DNA of 64,000 nucleotides from Escherichia coli (GTDB taxonomy: Bacteria > Pseudomonadota > Gammaproteobacteria > Enterobacterales > Enterobacteriaceae). The position numbers and the translations under genes are program-made. Where the stretch lies: assembly GCF_041886205.1 (NCBI RefSeq), contig NZ_CP169029.1; one strand, written 5' to 3'. How positions within the stretch are numbered: position 1 is the first letter of the stretch; the number at the start of each line of letters is the position of its first letter. Positions 9,399 through 61,893 of this stretch are shown piece by piece. Below the pieces are notes generated by a model that searched no databases, was not told the DNA's origin, and was given only the letters and a program-made list of their open reading frames with translations.

Positions 9399-9857
<459 letters not shown>

Positions 9858-11102
9858 TTAACACAAACGTTTTTCGATCCATTCTGTGATTTCCTGAAGA
9901 CCTTTGTCAAAATTCCGATACACCGGGTTAAATGGGATCTCTAATAATTTACCGTCAGCAGATGATGAGGTGATTAAGCGTGAGTCCTCTTCCGGGCTGA
10001 ACGGATCGTTCTTCCAGTAGCCTGATAACATTGGCGTTGGGCAGCGACGTCCCAGCAATCCTTGCACTTTTAATGAATAGCGATTCAGCTCCACGCGCAA
10101 CGCTTCGTCGGAAGCATCATGCATCCCCAAACGACTGGCCAGAACGTCAAGATACATTTCCGGCACCTGTTGCTGGCACTTAAAATCACTCAACAGGGTA
10201 TGAACTACCGGACCAAGACAGGCAACCGCTTTCAGACGCGGCGATTCAAGATATGCCAGACGCACGGCAACGTTAGCGCCGAAACGGAAACCAAAGGCCG
10301 CGACGCGAGTGTGATCCACCCACGGTACGTTAGGCAGAGCCTTTAAGACGTGCTGATGCAACAGGCTGGAGTCCTGGGTGAGCTTCCATTTTGAAGAAAA
10401 GCCCACCGACGGCATATCAATAGTCAGCATCGCAATGCCACGCGGCGCAAAATAACGTTCATACAGGCTGTAATAGTCCGTCTGCATCGCATCCAGACCA
10501 CCACACATTAATACCGTCGGGAACGGGCCATCGCCTTTCGGCATATGCAAAAAGCCGGTGATGGGCGCACCGCCGGGTACGGTAAACTCCATCTGCCGCA
10601 TCGTGCCCGGTAGACGCTGAGCGGCCTCTTCATAGGCGCGGTTTGACAAAGCCTGCGCTTGCTCGGCCAGGTCATCTCCTTTCAGATGAGGATAGGCGGC
10701 AATGTTGTACAACGTAGCCGCATGCAGCCAGTGACGCCCACTGAGTTGCGGATCTTCTTCCGCACAGGCTTTTTGTTGCCACACCATCGCCTGGGTGGCC
10801 CACTCATAAATCCAGTTGCCGCCACGGTAGCCAATCACCGTATCGTATAAATCATCGTCGGTACGTTCGGCATCGCTCATCACAATACGTGCCTGGACGT
10901 CGAGGATTTCACGTGGGTCAATGCCGCGCCAGATCCACATCAGACGGTTAATCATGCGATACCAGTGAGGGATGGTTTTACCATCAAGGGCCGACTGCAC
11001 AGGCGGTTGTGCGCCGTGATTAAAGCGGCGGACTAGCGTCGAGGTTTCAGGATGTTTAAAGCGGGGTTTGAACAGGGTTTCGCTCAGGTTTGCCTGTGTC
11101 AT
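9858..11102 (-). CDS. frsA: Esterase FrsA (alpha/beta hydrolase; fermentation/respiration switch protein)
   Basis: 414 aa [27 protein letters not shown]...; alpha/beta-hydrolase core; position between crl and gpt. Confidence 0.9.
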
Positions 11103-16997: not shown

Positions 16998-17690
16998 TTA
17001 ACGCGTTCGCTGCGAAAGCACCTGCTGCTTATCCAGCTTTTGCACCAGCGGCTGCACCACCTTATCCCCATGCTGACCAAAGTATTGATACAGCGTATCG
17101 GACGCACTTTTGGTCAGCACCATAATCTCAATGCGTCGGTTGCCCGCGCTTTGCGGATTTTTGGAATCCAGCAGCATCTGGTCCGCCATCGCGCTCACCT
17201 GCATCACTTTATCTTCCGGCATTCCTGCCTCTTCCAGCACCCGACGAGCCGAAAGCGCGCGGTCACCCGAAAGGTTCCAGTTGTTGTAGATATTATTTTT
17301 GTAGGCCATCGCATCGGTATGCCCGGTAATAATAATTTTGTTATCGAGCGAGTCGAAAACTGGCGCGAGCTCCACCAGCAGCGTTTTAAAGAACGGCATA
17401 ATCTGCGCGCTACCGCGTTCGAACATATTGCGATTCTGGTCGTCTTTAATCAGCACGCGTAATCCCTGCGGGACAATCTCCATCTCCAGATTCGCTTCCA
17501 TATGCGCATCACGGGCAATGGTGTTGATACTGGTTGCCAGCTCGCCAAGCTCGGTGGCGGATTTCATCTTCAGCAGCGCCGTTTTCTCGTTGACGTCGCG
17601 CGCTTTTTTCTCCGTCTCTTCCGGCACCGCCACGGTGGCAGGTTTTGGCGGATGAGACGGGCTGATTTTATTTAACGGCGACAACCCGCC
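16998..17690 (-). pseudogene. lafU: lafU remnant: MotB-like lateral-flagellar motor protein lacking its N-terminal membrane segment (Flag-2 remnant)
   Basis: Translation carries the MotB/OmpA-like C-terminal domain (...NWNLSGDRALSARRVLEEAGMP...); the 5' part of the track ORF is antisense to lfhA and not credible coding sequence. Confidence 0.7.
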
Positions 17691-17759
17691 GCCATTGAAA
17701 ATCGACTGCCCGTGCAGCGCGGCGATAATGCTTTCACGCTCGGATTTACTGACGCTGTT

Positions 17760-19467
17760 GACAATCAACTTTATCGTCGTCACCAAAGGGGCCGAGCGTA
17801 TTTCCGAGGTTTCTGCCCGCTTTACCCTGGACGCGATGCCCGGTAAGCAGATGGCGATTGATGCCGATCTTAACGCCGGATTGATCAACCAGGCGCAGGC
17901 GCAATCCCGGCGTAAAGATGTTGCCAGCGAGGCCGATTTCTACGGCGCGATGGACGGGGCATCGAAGTTTGTGCGCGGAGACGCCATCGCCGGGATGATG
18001 ATTCTGGCGATCAACCTGATCGGCGGCGTCTGTATCGGCATCTTCAAATACAACCTGAGCGCCGACGCCGCCTTCCAGCAATACGTGCTGATGACCATCG
18101 GCGACGGCCTGGTGGCGCAGATCCCTTCCCTGCTGCTCTCCACCGCGGCGGCGATTATTGTCACCCGCGTCAGCGACAACGGCGATATTGCCCATGACGT
18201 GCGCCACCAGCTGCTGGCAAGCCCGTCGGTGCTCTACACCGCTACCGGGATTATGTTTGTGCTGGCGGTGGTGCCGGGGATGCCGCACCTGCCGTTTTTG
18301 CTGTTCAGCGCCCTGCTTGGCTTTACCGGCTGGCGGATGAGCAAGCGCCCACAGGCGGCGGAGGCGGAAGAGAAAAGCCTCGAAACGCTGACCCGCACCA
18401 TCACTGAAACCAGTGAGCAACAGGTCAGTTGGGAGACGATACCGCTGATCGAGCCCATCAGCTTAAGCCTGGGCTACAAGCTGGTAGCGCTGGTGGATAA
18501 AGCCCAGGGCAACCCGCTCACCCAGCGAATTCGCGGCGTGCGGCAGGTGATTTCTGACGGTAACGGCGTGCTGCTGCCTGAGATCCGCATTCGGGAAAAC
18601 TTCCGCCTCAAGCCCAGCCAGTACGCTATTTTCATCAACGGCATTAAGGCTGATGAAGCGGATATTCCGGCGGATAAACTGATGGCCCTGCCCTCCAGCG
18701 AAACCTACGGCGAGATTGACGGCGTGCTGGGGAACGACCCGGCGTACGGAATGCCGGTCACCTGGATCCAGCCCGCACAGAAAGCGAAGGCGCTGAATAT
18801 GGGGTATCAGGTGATCGACAGCGCCAGCGTGATTGCCACGCATGTGAATAAGATTGTGCGTAGCTATATTCCTGATTTATTTAACTATGACGATATTACG
18901 CAGTTGCATAACCGTTTGTCGTCGATGGCACCGCGCCTGGCGGAAGATTTAAGCGCGGCGCTGAATTACAGCCAGTTGCTGAAAGTGTACCGCGCGCTGC
19001 TGACCGAAGGCGTTTCCCTGCGCGATATCGTCACCATTGCCACCGTGCTGGTCGCCAGTAGCGCGGTGACCAAAGATCATATTCTGCTGGCAGCTGATGT
19101 GCGCCTGGCGCTGCGGCGAAGCATTACCCATCCGTTCGTTCGCAAGCAGGAGCTGACGGTGTATACGCTGAATAATGAGCTGGAAAATCTGCTGACCAAC
19201 GTGGTGAATCAGGCGCAACAGGGCGGGAAAGTGATGCTCGACAGCGTGCCGGTCGATCCGAATATGCTCAACCAGTTCCAGAGTACGATGCCGCAGGTAA
19301 AAGAGCAGATGAAAGCGGCGGGGAAAGATCCGGTGCTGCTGGTGCCGCCTCAGCTGCGCCCTTTGCTGGCGCGTTATGCAAGGTTGTTTGCGCCGGGGCT
19401 GCATGTGCTGTCGTATAACGAAGTGCCGGACGAGCTGGAGTTGAAGATAATGGGGGCGTTGATGTAA
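17760..19467 (+). pseudogene. lfhA: lfhA remnant: FlhA-family flagellar export protein lacking its N-terminal ~130 aa and promoter (Flag-2 remnant)
   Basis: Credible FlhA homology begins ...GAERISEVSARFTLDAMPGKQMAIDADLNAGLI... and runs to the stop at 19467; no FlhA N-terminus and no start context. Confidence 0.7.
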
Positions 19468-19479
19468 GTATCCGGCATT

Positions 19480-19784
<305 letters not shown>

Positions 19785-19790
<6 letters not shown>

Positions 19791-20282
19791 AATGATACGC
19801 TCGCCAGCATTTATATCCGTTACGTCCCCCGCCCAATCGATGGGATATAACCCTCGCGCGACATCGCGATGGAACGTTGAGAATGGCCAATCACTCACTT
19901 GCTTTACCCAACCATGCTTTACTGGATTTATATAAATATAATCAACATGATGCCTATAATCTTTGGTATTGCGGATGGCGTGCTCCCAAAAACGTGGTTG
20001 CCAGATATTTTTCAATCCACAAGCATGGGTAAATTGCTTTTTAATTTCCCGCCAGCGCGAGGAAAAATCATCATCGCCTTCAGGTAATGTCCAGATACAG
20101 TGCATATGCTCTGGCAAAACGACCCAGGCGTTGATTTCAAAAGGCCTGTCTCGCTTAACTTTAATAATGGCGTGACGGAGCATCTGGTACTGGGTGGTCA
20201 AGAGTTGGCTTCGACGATTGCGTAAATTCACCGTGAAAAACCAGGTTCCCCCCTTGATGTAATAACGACGATATTCAGACAT
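19785..20282 (-). CDS. rayT: REP-associated tyrosine transposase (RayT/TnpA-REP)
   Basis: 165 aa MSEYRRYYIKGGTWFFTVNLRNRR...; IS200/IS605-like HUH fold (...HMHCIW...); flanked on both sides by REP elements. Confidence 0.85.
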
Positions 20283-20372
20283 GGCGACTCCTTTTTCTCA
20301 ACGGTAAGAAGAAAAGGAAAGGTCGGTAATGAGGTGATGGAATAACAGGAAAGCGGCTCGCAAAAACGCACA

Positions 20373-21216
<844 letters not shown>

Positions 21217-37898: not shown

Positions 37899-38425
37899 TT
37901 ATGCTTCCAGCGGTGCGCGCCAGTCGTCGGCACCGGAGGTGCCAGATTTGACGTGTTCCCATTCAATTTTCGCGGTAGGCCAGTGAAACTTCGAGCAACT
38001 GGGTGAACTCGCGTTTCGCCGGGTCCTGGCAATGCGGCATATGCAGTTCTCATATCGCCAATCGTCGAATCAGTCAGGCGGGGAGCGAGATAGTGCTCCT
38101 GTTTGCCTTCCACAGAGGTACGCCACCAGTGAAGTTCAGCGGTTGGGCAGCATTTCGCCGGAGGCCAGTGCGTTGTACATCAGCGGAACCGCTTTGTTCA
38201 GCGCCACGGTAAAAATGAAAGGCTTGTGAGCGCACGCTGACCCGCAGGCTGACCGGACTGAGGATCGGTCCGCACAGATAACGTTATGCAGGAATTCCTG
38301 CACCAGCATCTCCGTCTTCGTGCCCCTGCACATAGATGTTGCCGACAGAATCAGCGGTAAATGCACCTGCAGTAATATTTCCCTGGGTCTGACCAGTGAT
38401 GGAAGATATAACACGGTGTTGGCAT
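37899..38425 (-). pseudogene. hcp: hcp (T6SS inner-tube protein), frameshifted
   Basis: Start codon at 38425 encodes MPTPCYI...; internal ...HKPFIFTVALNKAVPLMYNALASGE...; C-terminus ...SGADDWRAPLEA* ending at 37899; the length (527 bp) is not a multiple of 3 and the frame changes at least twice. Confidence 0.8.
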
Positions 38426-58593: not shown

Positions 58594-58616
58594 TTATTTA
58601 ATTAAAGGAGATTATC

Positions 58617-59099
58617 ATGGCAAATATAAGTTATTTATCTTTGAGTGGAGAGACACAAGGGCTGATTTCAGCAGGTTGCTCAACGCTTGATTCTGTCGGA
58701 AACAAAGCGCAGCCAGAACATAAAGATCGAGATCATGGTTTATGCGTTAATGCATTCCATCTCAAGAAGTCAAAATGTCAATCATCATGAATTAATTATC
58801 ACCAAACCGGTTGATAAATCCTCACCATTGCTGGCAAAAGCACTTAGTGACAATGAAAAAATGGCAATATGTGAATTTATACTCTACCGAACCAGTAAAG
58901 CGGGTATTTACCAGCCTTATTATAAAATAAATCTGTCAAAAGCCCGAATATCAAGTATTGATTTTGTCACACCGCATGCTGTCCTGGAAAAGAACTGGAA
59001 CCACAGGAGAGAATTGCCTTTATTTATGAAGATATTTCCTGGGAGCATACGTTAGCCGGTACGAATGCAATGAGTAAATGGCAGGATCGTGTACAGTAA
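58617..59099 (+). pseudogene. hcp: Second Hcp-family gene, two frameshifts
   Basis: MANISYLSLSGETQGLISAGCSTLDSVGN (Hcp N-terminus) then frame loss; middle part ...DKSSPLLAKALSDNEKMAICEFILYRTSKAGIYQPYYKI...; C-terminus ...ISWEHTLAGTNAMSKWQDRVQ* in a third frame. Confidence 0.65.
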
Positions 59100-59142
59100 C
59101 TTACTGTAATAACATAATAAATTACTATTGCGGAGAGATAAA

Positions 59143-60039
59143 ATGGCTGGTTTAAGGAATAACAACAACACACAGAATGCACAGTGGGCTGATTATGTGG
59201 GTGACATTCTTCGGGGGGCTCAGCCGATAAACCAGCTAGTACCTCAGCACCCTTATCTTAACGACGTCCCACTCATTGATGAGTTAAGGCATCAGAACAC
59301 TCATCATGTTATTCTCTTGACACTTGATGTTGCAAAAAAAATACTCAGCCCAATAACATCATTTGATTACATTCATTTTATCACTACACATCCTTCAGGT
59401 ATAAAAGATACACTCGCCTGGTTAGTTAACGCGGGTAAATTAATGACTGAGTTTGATGACAATGGGAAAATTATATTTAACCTTAATGCCTTAAAGTATA
59501 CAAAAGCAAGTTACTTTGAAATACTTGGAGAGAAATATATAAAAATCACAACATCCAGCCCCTGGCTTTTAGAAAAGCTCGGTAAATATATTTTCTCTTC
59601 ACGAGCGCCTCAAGTTCTGGAACTCGCTATTGGCTGGCGAGGAGCTTTATCTGAATCAATAAAAGGAGTTAAGTTCTGTATCTGGTTTTCAGTAGCCTGG
59701 AGAACCATAGAATTTATTATGAGTTCAGAGCGAGATCTGGTTAATTTTCTTGGCGATTTTTCAATGGATGTGGCCAAAGCAGTTATAGCCGGTGGTGTTG
59801 CAACCGCTATTGGAAGCCTGGCTTCTTTTGCCTGTGTTAGCTTTGGCTTTCCAGTAATTCTTGTCGGAGGAGCAATTTTACTGACAGGGATAGTGTGTAC
59901 AGTTGTTTTAAATGAAATCGATGCTCAATGCCATTTATCAGAAAAATTAAAATATGCAATTAGAGATGGACTAAAACGGCAACAGGAACTTGATAAATGG
60001 AAAAGGGAAAACATGACTCCATTTATGTATGTTCTTTAA
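59143..60039 (+). CDS. Hypothetical protein (~298 aa) with C-terminal Gly/Ala-rich hydrophobic segment; candidate Hcp-linked membrane-targeting effector
   Basis: Intact AT-rich ORF directly after the second hcp; C-terminal AKAVIAGGVATAIGSLASFACVSFGFPVILVGGAILLTGIVCTVVL resembles glycine-zipper membrane-inserting segments. Start chosen at MAGLRNN; the alternative start is 59128. Confidence 0.5.
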   Translation: MAGLRNNNNTQNAQWADYVGDILRGAQPINQLVPQHPYLNDVPLIDELRHQNTHHVILLTLDVAKKILSPITSFDYIHFITTHPSGIKDTLAWLVNAGKLMTEFDDNGKIIFNLNALKYTKASYFEILGEKYIKITTSSPWLLEKLGKYIFSSRAPQVLELAIGWRGALSESIKGVKFCIWFSVAWRTIEFIMSSERDLVNFLGDFSMDVAKAVIAGGVATAIGSLASFACVSFGFPVILVGGAILLTGIVCTVVLNEIDAQCHLSEKLKYAIRDGLKRQQELDKWKRENMTPFMYVL

Positions 60040-60067
60040 CACTCCACCCGTGATATGAGGATTAACC

Positions 60068-60433
60068 ATGCGTTTACATGTTAAATTAAAAGAGTTTCTT
60101 TCGATGTTTTTTATGGCCATATTATTTTTCCCTGCATTCAATGCTTCTTTGTTTTTTACCGGAGTTAAACCTCTATATTCAATAATAAAATGCTCCACGG
60201 AAATATTTTATGATTGGAGAATGTTGATTCTGTGCTTTGGTTTCATGTCGTTTTCCTTTTTAAATATTCATGTAATTTTACTTACGATAATAAAATCATT
60301 CTTAATCAAAAAAACGAAGGTAGTCAATTTCGCCACAGACATAAACAATACAGCTAACTCTTATATTTTTACTAATAGCTATCGTAATAGCACCTTTAAT
60401 AGCTCCTTTTGTCACAGGATATGTCAATGCTAA
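60068..60433 (+). CDS. Hypothetical small polytopic membrane protein (121 aa); candidate cognate immunity protein
   Basis: Intact AT-rich ORF 29 bp after the preceding gene; strongly hydrophobic (…FFMAILFFPAF…, …MLILCFGFMSFSFL…). Confidence 0.4.
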   Translation: MRLHVKLKEFLSMFFMAILFFPAFNASLFFTGVKPLYSIIKCSTEIFYDWRMLILCFGFMSFSFLNIHVILLTIIKSFLIKKTKVVNFATDINNTANSYIFTNSYRNSTFNSSFCHRICQC

Positions 60434-60703
60434 TTATCACCCCTGCGGTAATAATGCGGGGATTTTCCCAGCGAGCAATCTGATATTAAAAATGGCATGA
60501 AATGTAGTAACTGAATATATTTCTCGCAAGGAAGATTCAGCAGTTAAATAACTAAATATTCTAAAACAAACAGTTTTTAACTCCGGTATTCCATGTCCTT
60601 TCTTGCACTGTCTTTGTCAAGAAAGATTTCTTATGCAAAGAATTTTGTATTATTGCCGCCCAGAGATTCCTGGCGGCAGATAGAATCTATTATTGATAGC
60701 GAG

Positions 60704-61486
60704 TTAACCAAATCTTTTCACCATCGCTTTATAGGTCTTTTGCTTAAGTTGCATGATTTGCTGCTCTGTCATATCAGTCGTACTGGCTTCATTCTTGTCG
60801 GGCAATGGTGGAAGCACTTTATATTCATACTTCACCGGCGACCAGGTACGTAGCCCACTCACCTGTTGCCACATCCACCAGCGTGAAACGTACCAGGTAG
60901 CGCAGGGAGATAGCGTCGGTGAGTTTTTCATTTTTATAGTCGGACCATACTGTTGATTTCAGCGCAGAGTCATATTTTCCTGTCTGCAACGTATCCTGGA
61001 AAACAATAATCGCTTTCTGATGCCCTTTTGCAGCCCACAAAACGCAGTGCCTGCATCCAGTTCATATTCTCAGCACTGGCAACATCCTCGTTCTCATTTT
61101 TATCTTTGTTTTTGTTACAAGTCAGAGGCTTTTGCCTGTCCGGGATACTCAGAAAAGAACGTGGAAACAGTATAATATTTTCGCATCTCCTCCTGCATAA
61201 TGGTTTCCGGTGCGCGGTTGCCGGATTGAACAAGTATTACAGGAGAATTAAGGGGAACGCGGAACTCATCTCCATCAAGCGCAGCTTGAATATCCTCTTC
61301 GGATACGGCCAGAGTGGTTTCATTACCGAATAAATCTTTGTCTGTCAGTTGCTGGGGAGTGTTTTTATTAATATTACTTTGTGTGACTTGAGCTTTTTTC
61401 TTCTTTTCATCAATAGAAGATTCAGAGGCACATCCTGCAAGCAGCGAGAATAACACACATATGCAACAAAGCTTTTTTGAATTCAT
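60704..61486 (-). pseudogene. yafT: YafT-like lipoprotein gene, about three frameshifts
   Basis: Lipoprotein signal [19 protein letters not shown] at 61486; coding-like continuation in three further frames (ORFs 60970..61233, 60825..61040, 60704..60931); adjacent to tRNA-Asp. Confidence 0.6.
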
Positions 61487-61816: not shown

Positions 61817-61893
61817 TGGCGGAACGGACGGGACTCGAACCCGCGACCCCCTGCGTGACAGGCAGGTATTCTAACCGACTGAACTACCGCTCC
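61817..61893 (-). tRNA. aspV: tRNA-Asp
   Basis: Reverse complement reads GGAGCGGTAGTTCAGTCGGTTAGAATACCTGCCTGTCACGCAGGGGGTCGCGGGTTCGAGTCCCGTCCGTTCCGCCA (GUC anticodon); located next to dnaQ. Confidence 0.92.

Follow-up and report, generated by a model that had tools for sequence, protein, structure and literature searches.

Fridman et al. (2020; PMC7046647) define the Tme family as membrane-disrupting type VI secretion system (T6SS) effectors, whose hallmark is a C-terminal region with a near-invariant DxxK motif, followed by a transmembrane (TM) helix and a flanking Asp, and propose DUF1240 and DUF1240-like proteins as the corresponding Tmi immunity family. From the periplasm, Tme1 and Tme2 exert a non-lytic toxicity that involves loss of the membrane potential and admission of propidium iodide and is neutralised by the cognate Tmi only (Fridman et al., 2020; PMC7046647). 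Supplementary Data 5 of the same work (PMC7046647) lists, for many Escherichia coli strains, the protein WP_000908052.1, with a Tme domain spanning residues 122-277 (E 3.7e-36), together with an Hcp (WP_001284199.1) 43 bp upstream and YkfM (WP_001236643.1, three TM helices) 9 bp downstream. Because the exact proteins concerned here are in that listing, the E. coli pair is a catalogued, predicted member of the Tme/Tmi family, i.e. it is already known, not new. Literature searches on yafU in connection with type VI secretion, on the RefSeq accession numbers and on Tme in E. coli returned no experiment on, or main-text treatment of, the E. coli pair; in a Klebsiella paper 'Tme' is used as a category label only.

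The window, i.e. the whole 64,000-nucleotide stretch of E. coli DNA that was analysed, carries a damaged copy of this already catalogued T6SS toxin-immunity pair, consisting of a Tme effector gene and ykfM (Table 1). The aspV-adjacent T6SS-1 island of E. coli lies at the 3' end of the window, and hcp2-tme-tmi (ykfM) is its last cassette; the order over the last 10 kb is tssM, a VasL-domain gene, hcp, the two ORFs, yafT (minus strand), tRNA-Asp (minus strand), dnaQ, rnhA and yafS, and the gene order around aspV is the same in the window, the reference and K-12. The pair, which an earlier note on this DNA had termed an 'orphan' module, is thus at its normal site at the end of the T6SS-1 cluster. 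The same note had remarked on a G+C content much lower than that of the T6SS core, and the values bear this out (0.386 for the first ORF and 0.314 for the ykfM region versus 0.561 for the core). A megablast search with positions 58600-60600 gave matches in 3088 of 5426 complete E. coli genomes, 2548 of which cover at least 80% of the query. As intact reference we used NZ_CP027388.1 (loci L001 and L007), the window being aligned base by base to L001; its annotation comprises an Hcp (WP_001284199.1, 160 aa), a 'hypothetical protein' (WP_000908052.1, 304 aa), 'protein YkfM' (WP_001236643.1, 159 aa) and, on the opposite strand, a YafT-like lipoprotein (261 aa).

Table 1. Features at the 3' end of the T6SS-1 island in the window, with the basis of each assignment.
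Feature	Position	Strand	Basis or remark
hcp2, Tme-linked Hcp paralogue, pseudogene here	58617..59099	+	aligned to WP_001284199.1 (160 aa)
tme, Tme-family effector gene, 298 aa as read	59143..60039	+	residues 1-298 identical to WP_000908052.1
A8 homopolymer in tme, codons 64-67, natural frameshift hotspot	59334..59341	+	length 8 here
DxxK motif (D209-V-A-K212), Tme hallmark	59767..59778	+	alignments of 9 and 67 sequences
Gly/Ala-rich hydrophobic helical hairpin, residues 213-258, turn P237, then D260	59779..59922	+	
+T insertion giving a premature tme stop, last 6 residues (NTPPVI) lost	60035..60035	+	alignment to L001, translation comparison
ykfM (tmi, immunity gene), pseudogene here	60068..60551	+	residues 1-92 identical to WP_001236643.1 (159 aa)
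yafT, lipoprotein gene, island edge, broken	60690..61486	-	aligned to 261-aa YafT; longest frame 123 aa
tRNA-Asp (aspV), T6SS-1 island integration landmark	61817..61893	-	ARAGORN

The two ORFs had been described as intact. Open frames are indeed present at 59143-60039 and 60068-60433, but neither is an intact gene, the first carrying +T at 60035 and the second +A at 60343 plus three further insertions. The tme frame, which has 298 residues when read from ATG and 303 when read from an upstream TTG, has a plausible putative ribosome-binding site (GGAGAG), and an open frame of this length is far beyond chance, given that the longest open frame in 2000 shuffles of the segment averaged 64 codons and reached at most 179, versus the 298 observed. 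The 304-residue allele, the end of which would fall at 60058 in window coordinates, is carried without the +T by thousands of E. coli genomes. Since orthologues do not conserve the tail that follows 'YVL', the product of the window's tme may still be functional as a protein despite the loss of its final six residues. The A8 tract within the gene is 7 or 9 long in 7 of 53 metagenome contigs, and N-terminally shortened Tme proteins of 243 aa form clusters of 1292 and 243 member sequences.

The Gly/Ala-rich hydrophobic end that had led to the proposal of a membrane-inserting toxin is present, at residues ~213-258 with a Kyte-Doolittle peak of 2.71, and the listing of the protein in the Tme family (PMC7046647) agrees with that proposal, predicting a toxin of the membrane-targeting type. 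D209, K212, P237 and D260 are invariant in an alignment of nine sequences; K212 remains invariant in one of 67 sequences, which extends to distant homologues, and conservation there is at least 90% at D209, D260 and four glycines. An AlphaFold2 model of Tme (pLDDT 74.6) has a C-terminal bundle of long helices that includes the hydrophobic hairpin (helices 199-234 and 238-263). The Foldseek comparison suggested by the earlier note turned up no significant PDB match for this model, and neither did a profile search of PDB sequences. Towards its N terminus, the E. coli Tme subfamily has a motif of its own (Y18, G20, L23, G25, N30, P34, H36 and Y38 in the nine-sequence alignment). The idea that the N-terminal region is a polymorphic delivery domain was dropped, since a search for fusions to other toxin domains yielded nothing beyond truncated fragments and deletion fusions to Tmi.

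The second ORF, of 121 residues, is a truncated reading of ykfM. The +A insertion causes the frame to be lost after residue 92, leaving the final 29 residues out of frame, and is followed by the insertions at 60472, 60482 and 60511. The putative ribosome-binding site of ykfM (GAGGA) is plausible; the gap between tme and ykfM is 9 bp in the intact allele, and 28 bp separate the window's early tme stop from the ykfM ATG. Intact YkfM has three hydrophobic segments (scanning-window centres at ~19-24, 61-72 and 94-112), for which the topology predicted by Phobius is i12-32o52-75i96-119o (Fridman et al., 2020; PMC7046647, Supplementary Data 5). The 121-residue product keeps the first two segments only, so that the YkfM of the window has lost TM3 and, as judged by alignment with relatives, the motif that is best conserved in the family, Y-H-x-C...G-I-F-x-G...Y-V-K...C. 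As had been supposed for the second ORF, the predicted protein type is that of a polytopic membrane immunity protein, here Tmi/DUF1240-like. In direct Pfam matching YkfM gives no DUF1240 (PF06836) match even at E<=10; it shares, however, 51% full-length identity with the DUF1240 (PF06836) neighbour protein of Salmonella and is 56-67% identical to two PF06836-carrying metagenomic proteins (P0212 and P0207), and in the YkfM-family alignment (A4) one member matches PF06836 at E<=0.001 and four do so at E<=0.1. Transitive homology of this kind would place YkfM in the DUF1240 (Tmi) family. The lack of a Pfam DUF1240 match of YkfM's own, like that of an NCBIfam or PADLOC match for either protein and of a solved structural relative for the Tme model, counts against reading the locus as a toxin-immunity cassette.

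Scans of Tme, YkfM and likewise YafT against Pfam, NCBIfam and PADLOC gave no useful matches, and a word-indexed search with the first protein found only 19 clusters, from E. coli, Salmonella (62% identity) and Rahnella (39%). Exhaustive profile searching returned 700 representative Tme clusters at E<=0.001, with a conserved core at profile positions ~120-280. Six of 15 long Tme homologues have an N-terminal PAAR domain, i.e. some are PAAR-fused, which provides an independent link to the T6SS. Linkage to Hcp, a feature that the earlier note had raised, is conserved across genera: besides E. coli, the hcp-tme-tmi trio occurs in E. albertii, Salmonella, Buttiauxella, two species of Rahnella and one Citrobacter-labelled metagenome-assembled genome. 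The order in Salmonella is hcp, tme homologue and DUF1240 protein, at the same end of the island beside yafT and dnaQ; the orientation of tme-tmi with respect to hcp is reversed in Rahnella and Buttiauxella, Rahnella having an isolated pair of tme homologue and DUF1240 gene that adjoins a convergent hcp. A profile scan of contigs with the nine-sequence alignment gave five loci only, the pattern used being the subfamily-specific N-terminal motif. The low dN/dS values relative to orthologues (0.21-0.24 for tme and 0.21-0.32 for tmi) indicate that, where intact, both are real genes under purifying selection, as read from sequence comparison.

The second hcp, located 43 bp upstream of tme at the end of the T6SS-1 cluster, is broken, as had been noticed from the sequence, its lesions being +G at 58729 and -A at 58987; the intact product matches TIGR03344 (E 2e-60). 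The Tme-linked Hcps of E. coli, Salmonella, Rahnella and Buttiauxella share 57-74% identity, whereas the other Hcp of the island is only 29% identical. The Tme-linked Hcps form a clade of their own, which suggests a co-travelling carrier. Loading of Tme via Hcp2, for which the evidence is gene linkage, is uncertain, because the classical cases of effectors carried inside Hcp are small proteins and Tme, at 304 aa, is larger than these.

The identity of the genes, their motifs, the conserved trio and the lesions are observed directly; by analogy with Tme1/Tmi1 and Tme2/Tmi2, from which the mechanism is borrowed, hcp2-tme-tmi is very probably a T6SS membrane-toxin/immunity cassette that is dead or dying in the window. 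Intact Tme (304 aa) would be a cargo effector, probably carried by its dedicated Hcp2, that the T6SS fires into the periplasm of Gram-negative neighbours. Its C-terminal domain, with the DxxK motif, the Gly/Ala-rich hairpin and D260, would then insert into the inner membrane, dissipating the membrane potential and rendering the membrane leaky, and YkfM (159 aa), with three predicted TM helices and a putatively periplasmic, Cys-containing tail, would be the cognate Tmi that shields sister cells. In the sequence of the window the carrier, the machine and the antidote are all broken.

It had been proposed that the pair survived while the secretion apparatus decayed, selection for kin immunity or for a role independent of delivery having kept it intact. 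The indel map relative to the intact reference comprises one event in tme (916 bp), four in ykfM (484 bp), two in hcp2 and six in yafT (all insertions, with 11 inserted bases). That tme has a single lesion, with only its non-conserved six-residue tail gone, is in keeping with such selection, as is the finding that elsewhere ykfM outlives the effector, 3006 of the complete E. coli genomes having the 5' part of ykfM compared with 2609 for the 5' half of tme, and K-12 having an intact ykfM next to a truncated tme. However, the 3' half of the island (tssG-vasL) has ~1 indel event per 460 bp, such that ~2 would be expected in tme, and the single event observed there is in line with the local background. 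Several genes of the T6SS core carry less damage than the pair, with no indels in tagH, tssJ and vasI and one each in tssK and tssA, and ykfM is the more damaged partner, with indels above the island average and, with them, loss of the third TM segment and the conserved tail. Because the indel density of the pair matches that of the island, special preservation of tme and ykfM is not supported, and we consider selective retention of an intact pair to be very improbable.

The nature of the indels themselves bears on the state of the cassette. They are confined to the island (~28100-61160), with zero in the flanking genes dpaA, yafJ, lpcA, fadE, ivy, yafV, aspV, dnaQ, rnhA and yafS. Natural gene decay has a deletion-biased, homopolymer-linked indel spectrum. 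In the window, from position 38000 onward, 112 of 144 events (~78%) are +1 insertions with evenly composed inserted bases, and only 54 of the 123 single-base events lie next to an identical base, close to what chance would give. Compared with indels there are few substitutions, tssC for instance having 22 of them and 27 inserted bases. None of the complete E. coli genomes has the indels of the window (best match 98.3%), the frameshifted products of 121 and 123 aa are absent among 15 billion proteins, and metagenomes gave 0 matches to the frameshifted ykfM site and 71 to the intact site. These properties speak for the view that the island frameshifts, including those in hcp2, tme and ykfM, are errors of this sequence, the real genome then having an intact and functional T6SS-1 and cassette. 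Against such errors stands the strict confinement of the indels to the island, since a platform-wide error would ignore the boundary that the ten clean flanking genes mark, and the cleanness of tagH, tssJ and vasI, which lie inside it. The island indels may thus be artefacts, a serious possibility though one that we hold to be somewhat less than even. Were the frameshifts erroneous, the state of the module would change, from dead to intact, and its identity as a toxin-immunity cassette would not.

The same locus in K-12 lies between a T6SS remnant and yafT-aspV-dnaQ, the T6SS core having been wholly deleted. The statement in the earlier note that K-12 has ykfM and yafU at this position proved correct on alignment, the C terminus of the first ORF corresponding to yafU and the second ORF to ykfM. 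Next to an ISAs1 remnant lies a gene annotated as 'hypothetical protein, missing N-terminus', which corresponds to the final 118 codons of tme; read from the internal Met193, this fragment has 112 residues and includes the DxxK motif, the hairpin and D260, and, YafU being 112 aa long, we take it to be YafU. The K-12 effector is thus cut by the ISAs1 remnant, whereas that of the window is nearly full length; conversely, ykfM is an intact 159-aa gene (Tmi) in K-12 and frameshifted in the window. The immunity gene has been kept without the full effector in about 400 genomes, among which are many K-12 derivatives, and the orphan-immunity pattern is found in these genomes, not in the window.

Two sets of published observations concern ykfM in K-12. 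The ykfM::Tn5 mutant is viable, and nalidixic acid, mitomycin C and peroxide are hyperlethal to it. In a TraDIS library of K-12, ykfM has few insertions and is listed together with antitoxin genes, and also with many AT-rich horizontally acquired genes, the authors noting that essentiality can be over-called for genes with few insertions. We treat both phenotypes as leads only. The stress phenotypes of the Tn5 mutant are not predicted by a pure immunity role, and count against the cassette reading. Together with the paucity of TraDIS insertions and the K-12 label of YkfM as a 'lethality reduction' protein, they could be taken to mean that the pair has a resident inner-membrane function in stress tolerance. 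This is difficult to reconcile with the match to the Tme domain, the DxxK...D arrangement, the PAAR fusions, the Hcp linkage and the DUF1240 neighbours, all of which point to the T6SS, or with the absence of tme/ykfM from ~45-50% of complete E. coli genomes (the cassette being present in about half) and its location in AT-rich island DNA. The low-insertion list is rich in AT-rich acquired genes, with over-calling possible, and a viable Tn5 mutant exists, such that we give a resident stress-tolerance role very little credence. A speculative and rather unlikely variant, which retains the T6SS origin, is that in K-12 and the ~400 genomes the yafU fragment is still made and is mildly membrane-toxic from within, ykfM acting as an internal antidote in an addiction-like relic pair; if true, this would account for both the stress hyperlethality of ykfM::Tn5 and the under-representation of ykfM in TraDIS.

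The toxin-immunity cassette reading does not add a new type of system, but it ties yafU and ykfM to a Tme/Tmi relic, and so gives a concrete reading of two poorly characterised y-genes. It also has annotation value, in that the RefSeq names are still 'hypothetical protein' for the effector and 'protein YkfM' for the immunity gene. A 2023 survey of T6SS effectors in ETEC reported no cargo effectors, because only MIX, FIX and RIX markers were searched.

In terms of known systems, the E. coli pair most resembles Tme1/Tmi1 and Tme2/Tmi2 of Vibrio parahaemolyticus, with which it shares a C-terminal Tme domain (DxxK, TM helix and flanking D), a gene directly downstream for a multi-pass, putatively DUF1240-like immunity protein and a T6SS gene directly upstream. 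In its N-terminal region Tme1 carries a RIX domain and the E. coli subfamily the conserved motif of its own; unlike Tme1 and Tme2, the E. coli subfamily is tied to a dedicated Hcp paralogue, and the copy in the window is damaged. VasX of V. cholerae, Tse4 of P. aeruginosa and Ssp6/Ssp4 of Serratia also act from the periplasm, depolarising or permeabilising the inner membrane, and have membrane-associated immunity proteins; some of these toxins are Hcp-dependent and some have glycine-zipper-like segments. Although their action is similar to that of Tme, they have no sequence or fold relationship with it. VasX served as the comparator toxin for Tme in the work of Fridman et al. (2020; PMC7046647), according to which the motif and secondary structure of Tme are distinct from those of other membrane-targeting T6SS toxins.

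The Tme-family T6SS effector gene, tme, contains a run of eight adenines (A8) that looks like a natural frameshift hotspot, one at which the predicted effector would frequently be inactivated. Across metagenome contigs the length of the tract is 7, 8 or 9, and tme is out of frame in 7 of the 53; among Tme proteins, clusters of 1292 and 243 member sequences are made up of 243-aa forms shortened at the N-terminus. A profile search with the Tme alignment, which yielded 700 representative clusters, also returned two natural deletion fusions (P0057 and P0131), in which the N-terminus of Tme is joined directly to the C-terminal part of Tmi, the predicted cognate DUF1240-like immunity protein; since these fusions are without the toxic domain, they point to a further route to effector loss.

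Features in the window and at homologous loci in other genera
Feature	Sequence	Coordinates	Strand	Remark
Flag-2 remnant	window	16998-21143		lafU and flhA pseudogene truncated at 5' end
A8 tract	window	59334-59341		inside tme, codons 64-67
yafT, lipoprotein gene, Pfam YafT family	window	60690-61486	minus	broken by 6 insertion events
Second, degenerate hcp-tme-tmi set	Salmonella enterica contig DALPDZ010000034.1 (L006)	9480-11010		downstream of first set
tme-tmi inverted, convergent with hcp	Rahnella and Buttiauxella loci (L003, L011, L012)	L003 8001-9937; L012 282-2784		

The second set in Salmonella enterica consists of an hcp fragment, a split tme and a second DUF1240 gene, which is intact. 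Its tme is of a different subtype from that of the first set and is broken into pieces of 169 aa and 43 aa. This locus is a tandem array of predicted effectors and immunity proteins with one additional immunity gene. In Rahnella the hcp-tme-tmi trio is surrounded by metabolic genes and is distant from any T6SS core; that of Buttiauxella comes after a VasL-like gene.

YkfM, the product of tmi, when searched as its intact allele against the Pfam DUF1240 model, gave no matches, even at E≤10, and proteins with 51-67% identity to it do score as DUF1240. The model appears to be weakly sensitive for what would be the YkfM branch of Tmi.

Alignment of the window to the intact E. coli T6SS-1 island of NZ_CP027388.1 has 471 gap openings over approximately 28100-61160, i.e. 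from ISAs1/rhs/vgrG to yafT, the latter a gene kept at the island edge in Salmonella as well. The gap openings are restricted to the island; the housekeeping genes on either side of it contain no such gaps. Among the 144 events from position 38000 on, +1 insertions account for 112, and these are even in base composition and free of homopolymer bias, a spectrum that is unlike both natural decay and genome-wide sequencing error. Over the Flag-2 remnant, identity to the same reference falls to 94-96%, and the stretch of the reference strain carrying hicAB and dinJ-yafQ is matched differently.

In E. coli K-12, the genes with few TraDIS insertions include ykfM and ydcD (PMC5821084), the latter encoding a YdcD family protein and lying, in the reference annotation, directly 3' of an RHS core gene. 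The same K-12 list holds the antitoxin genes higA, hipB and relB, but also many AT-rich acquired genes (PMC5821084).
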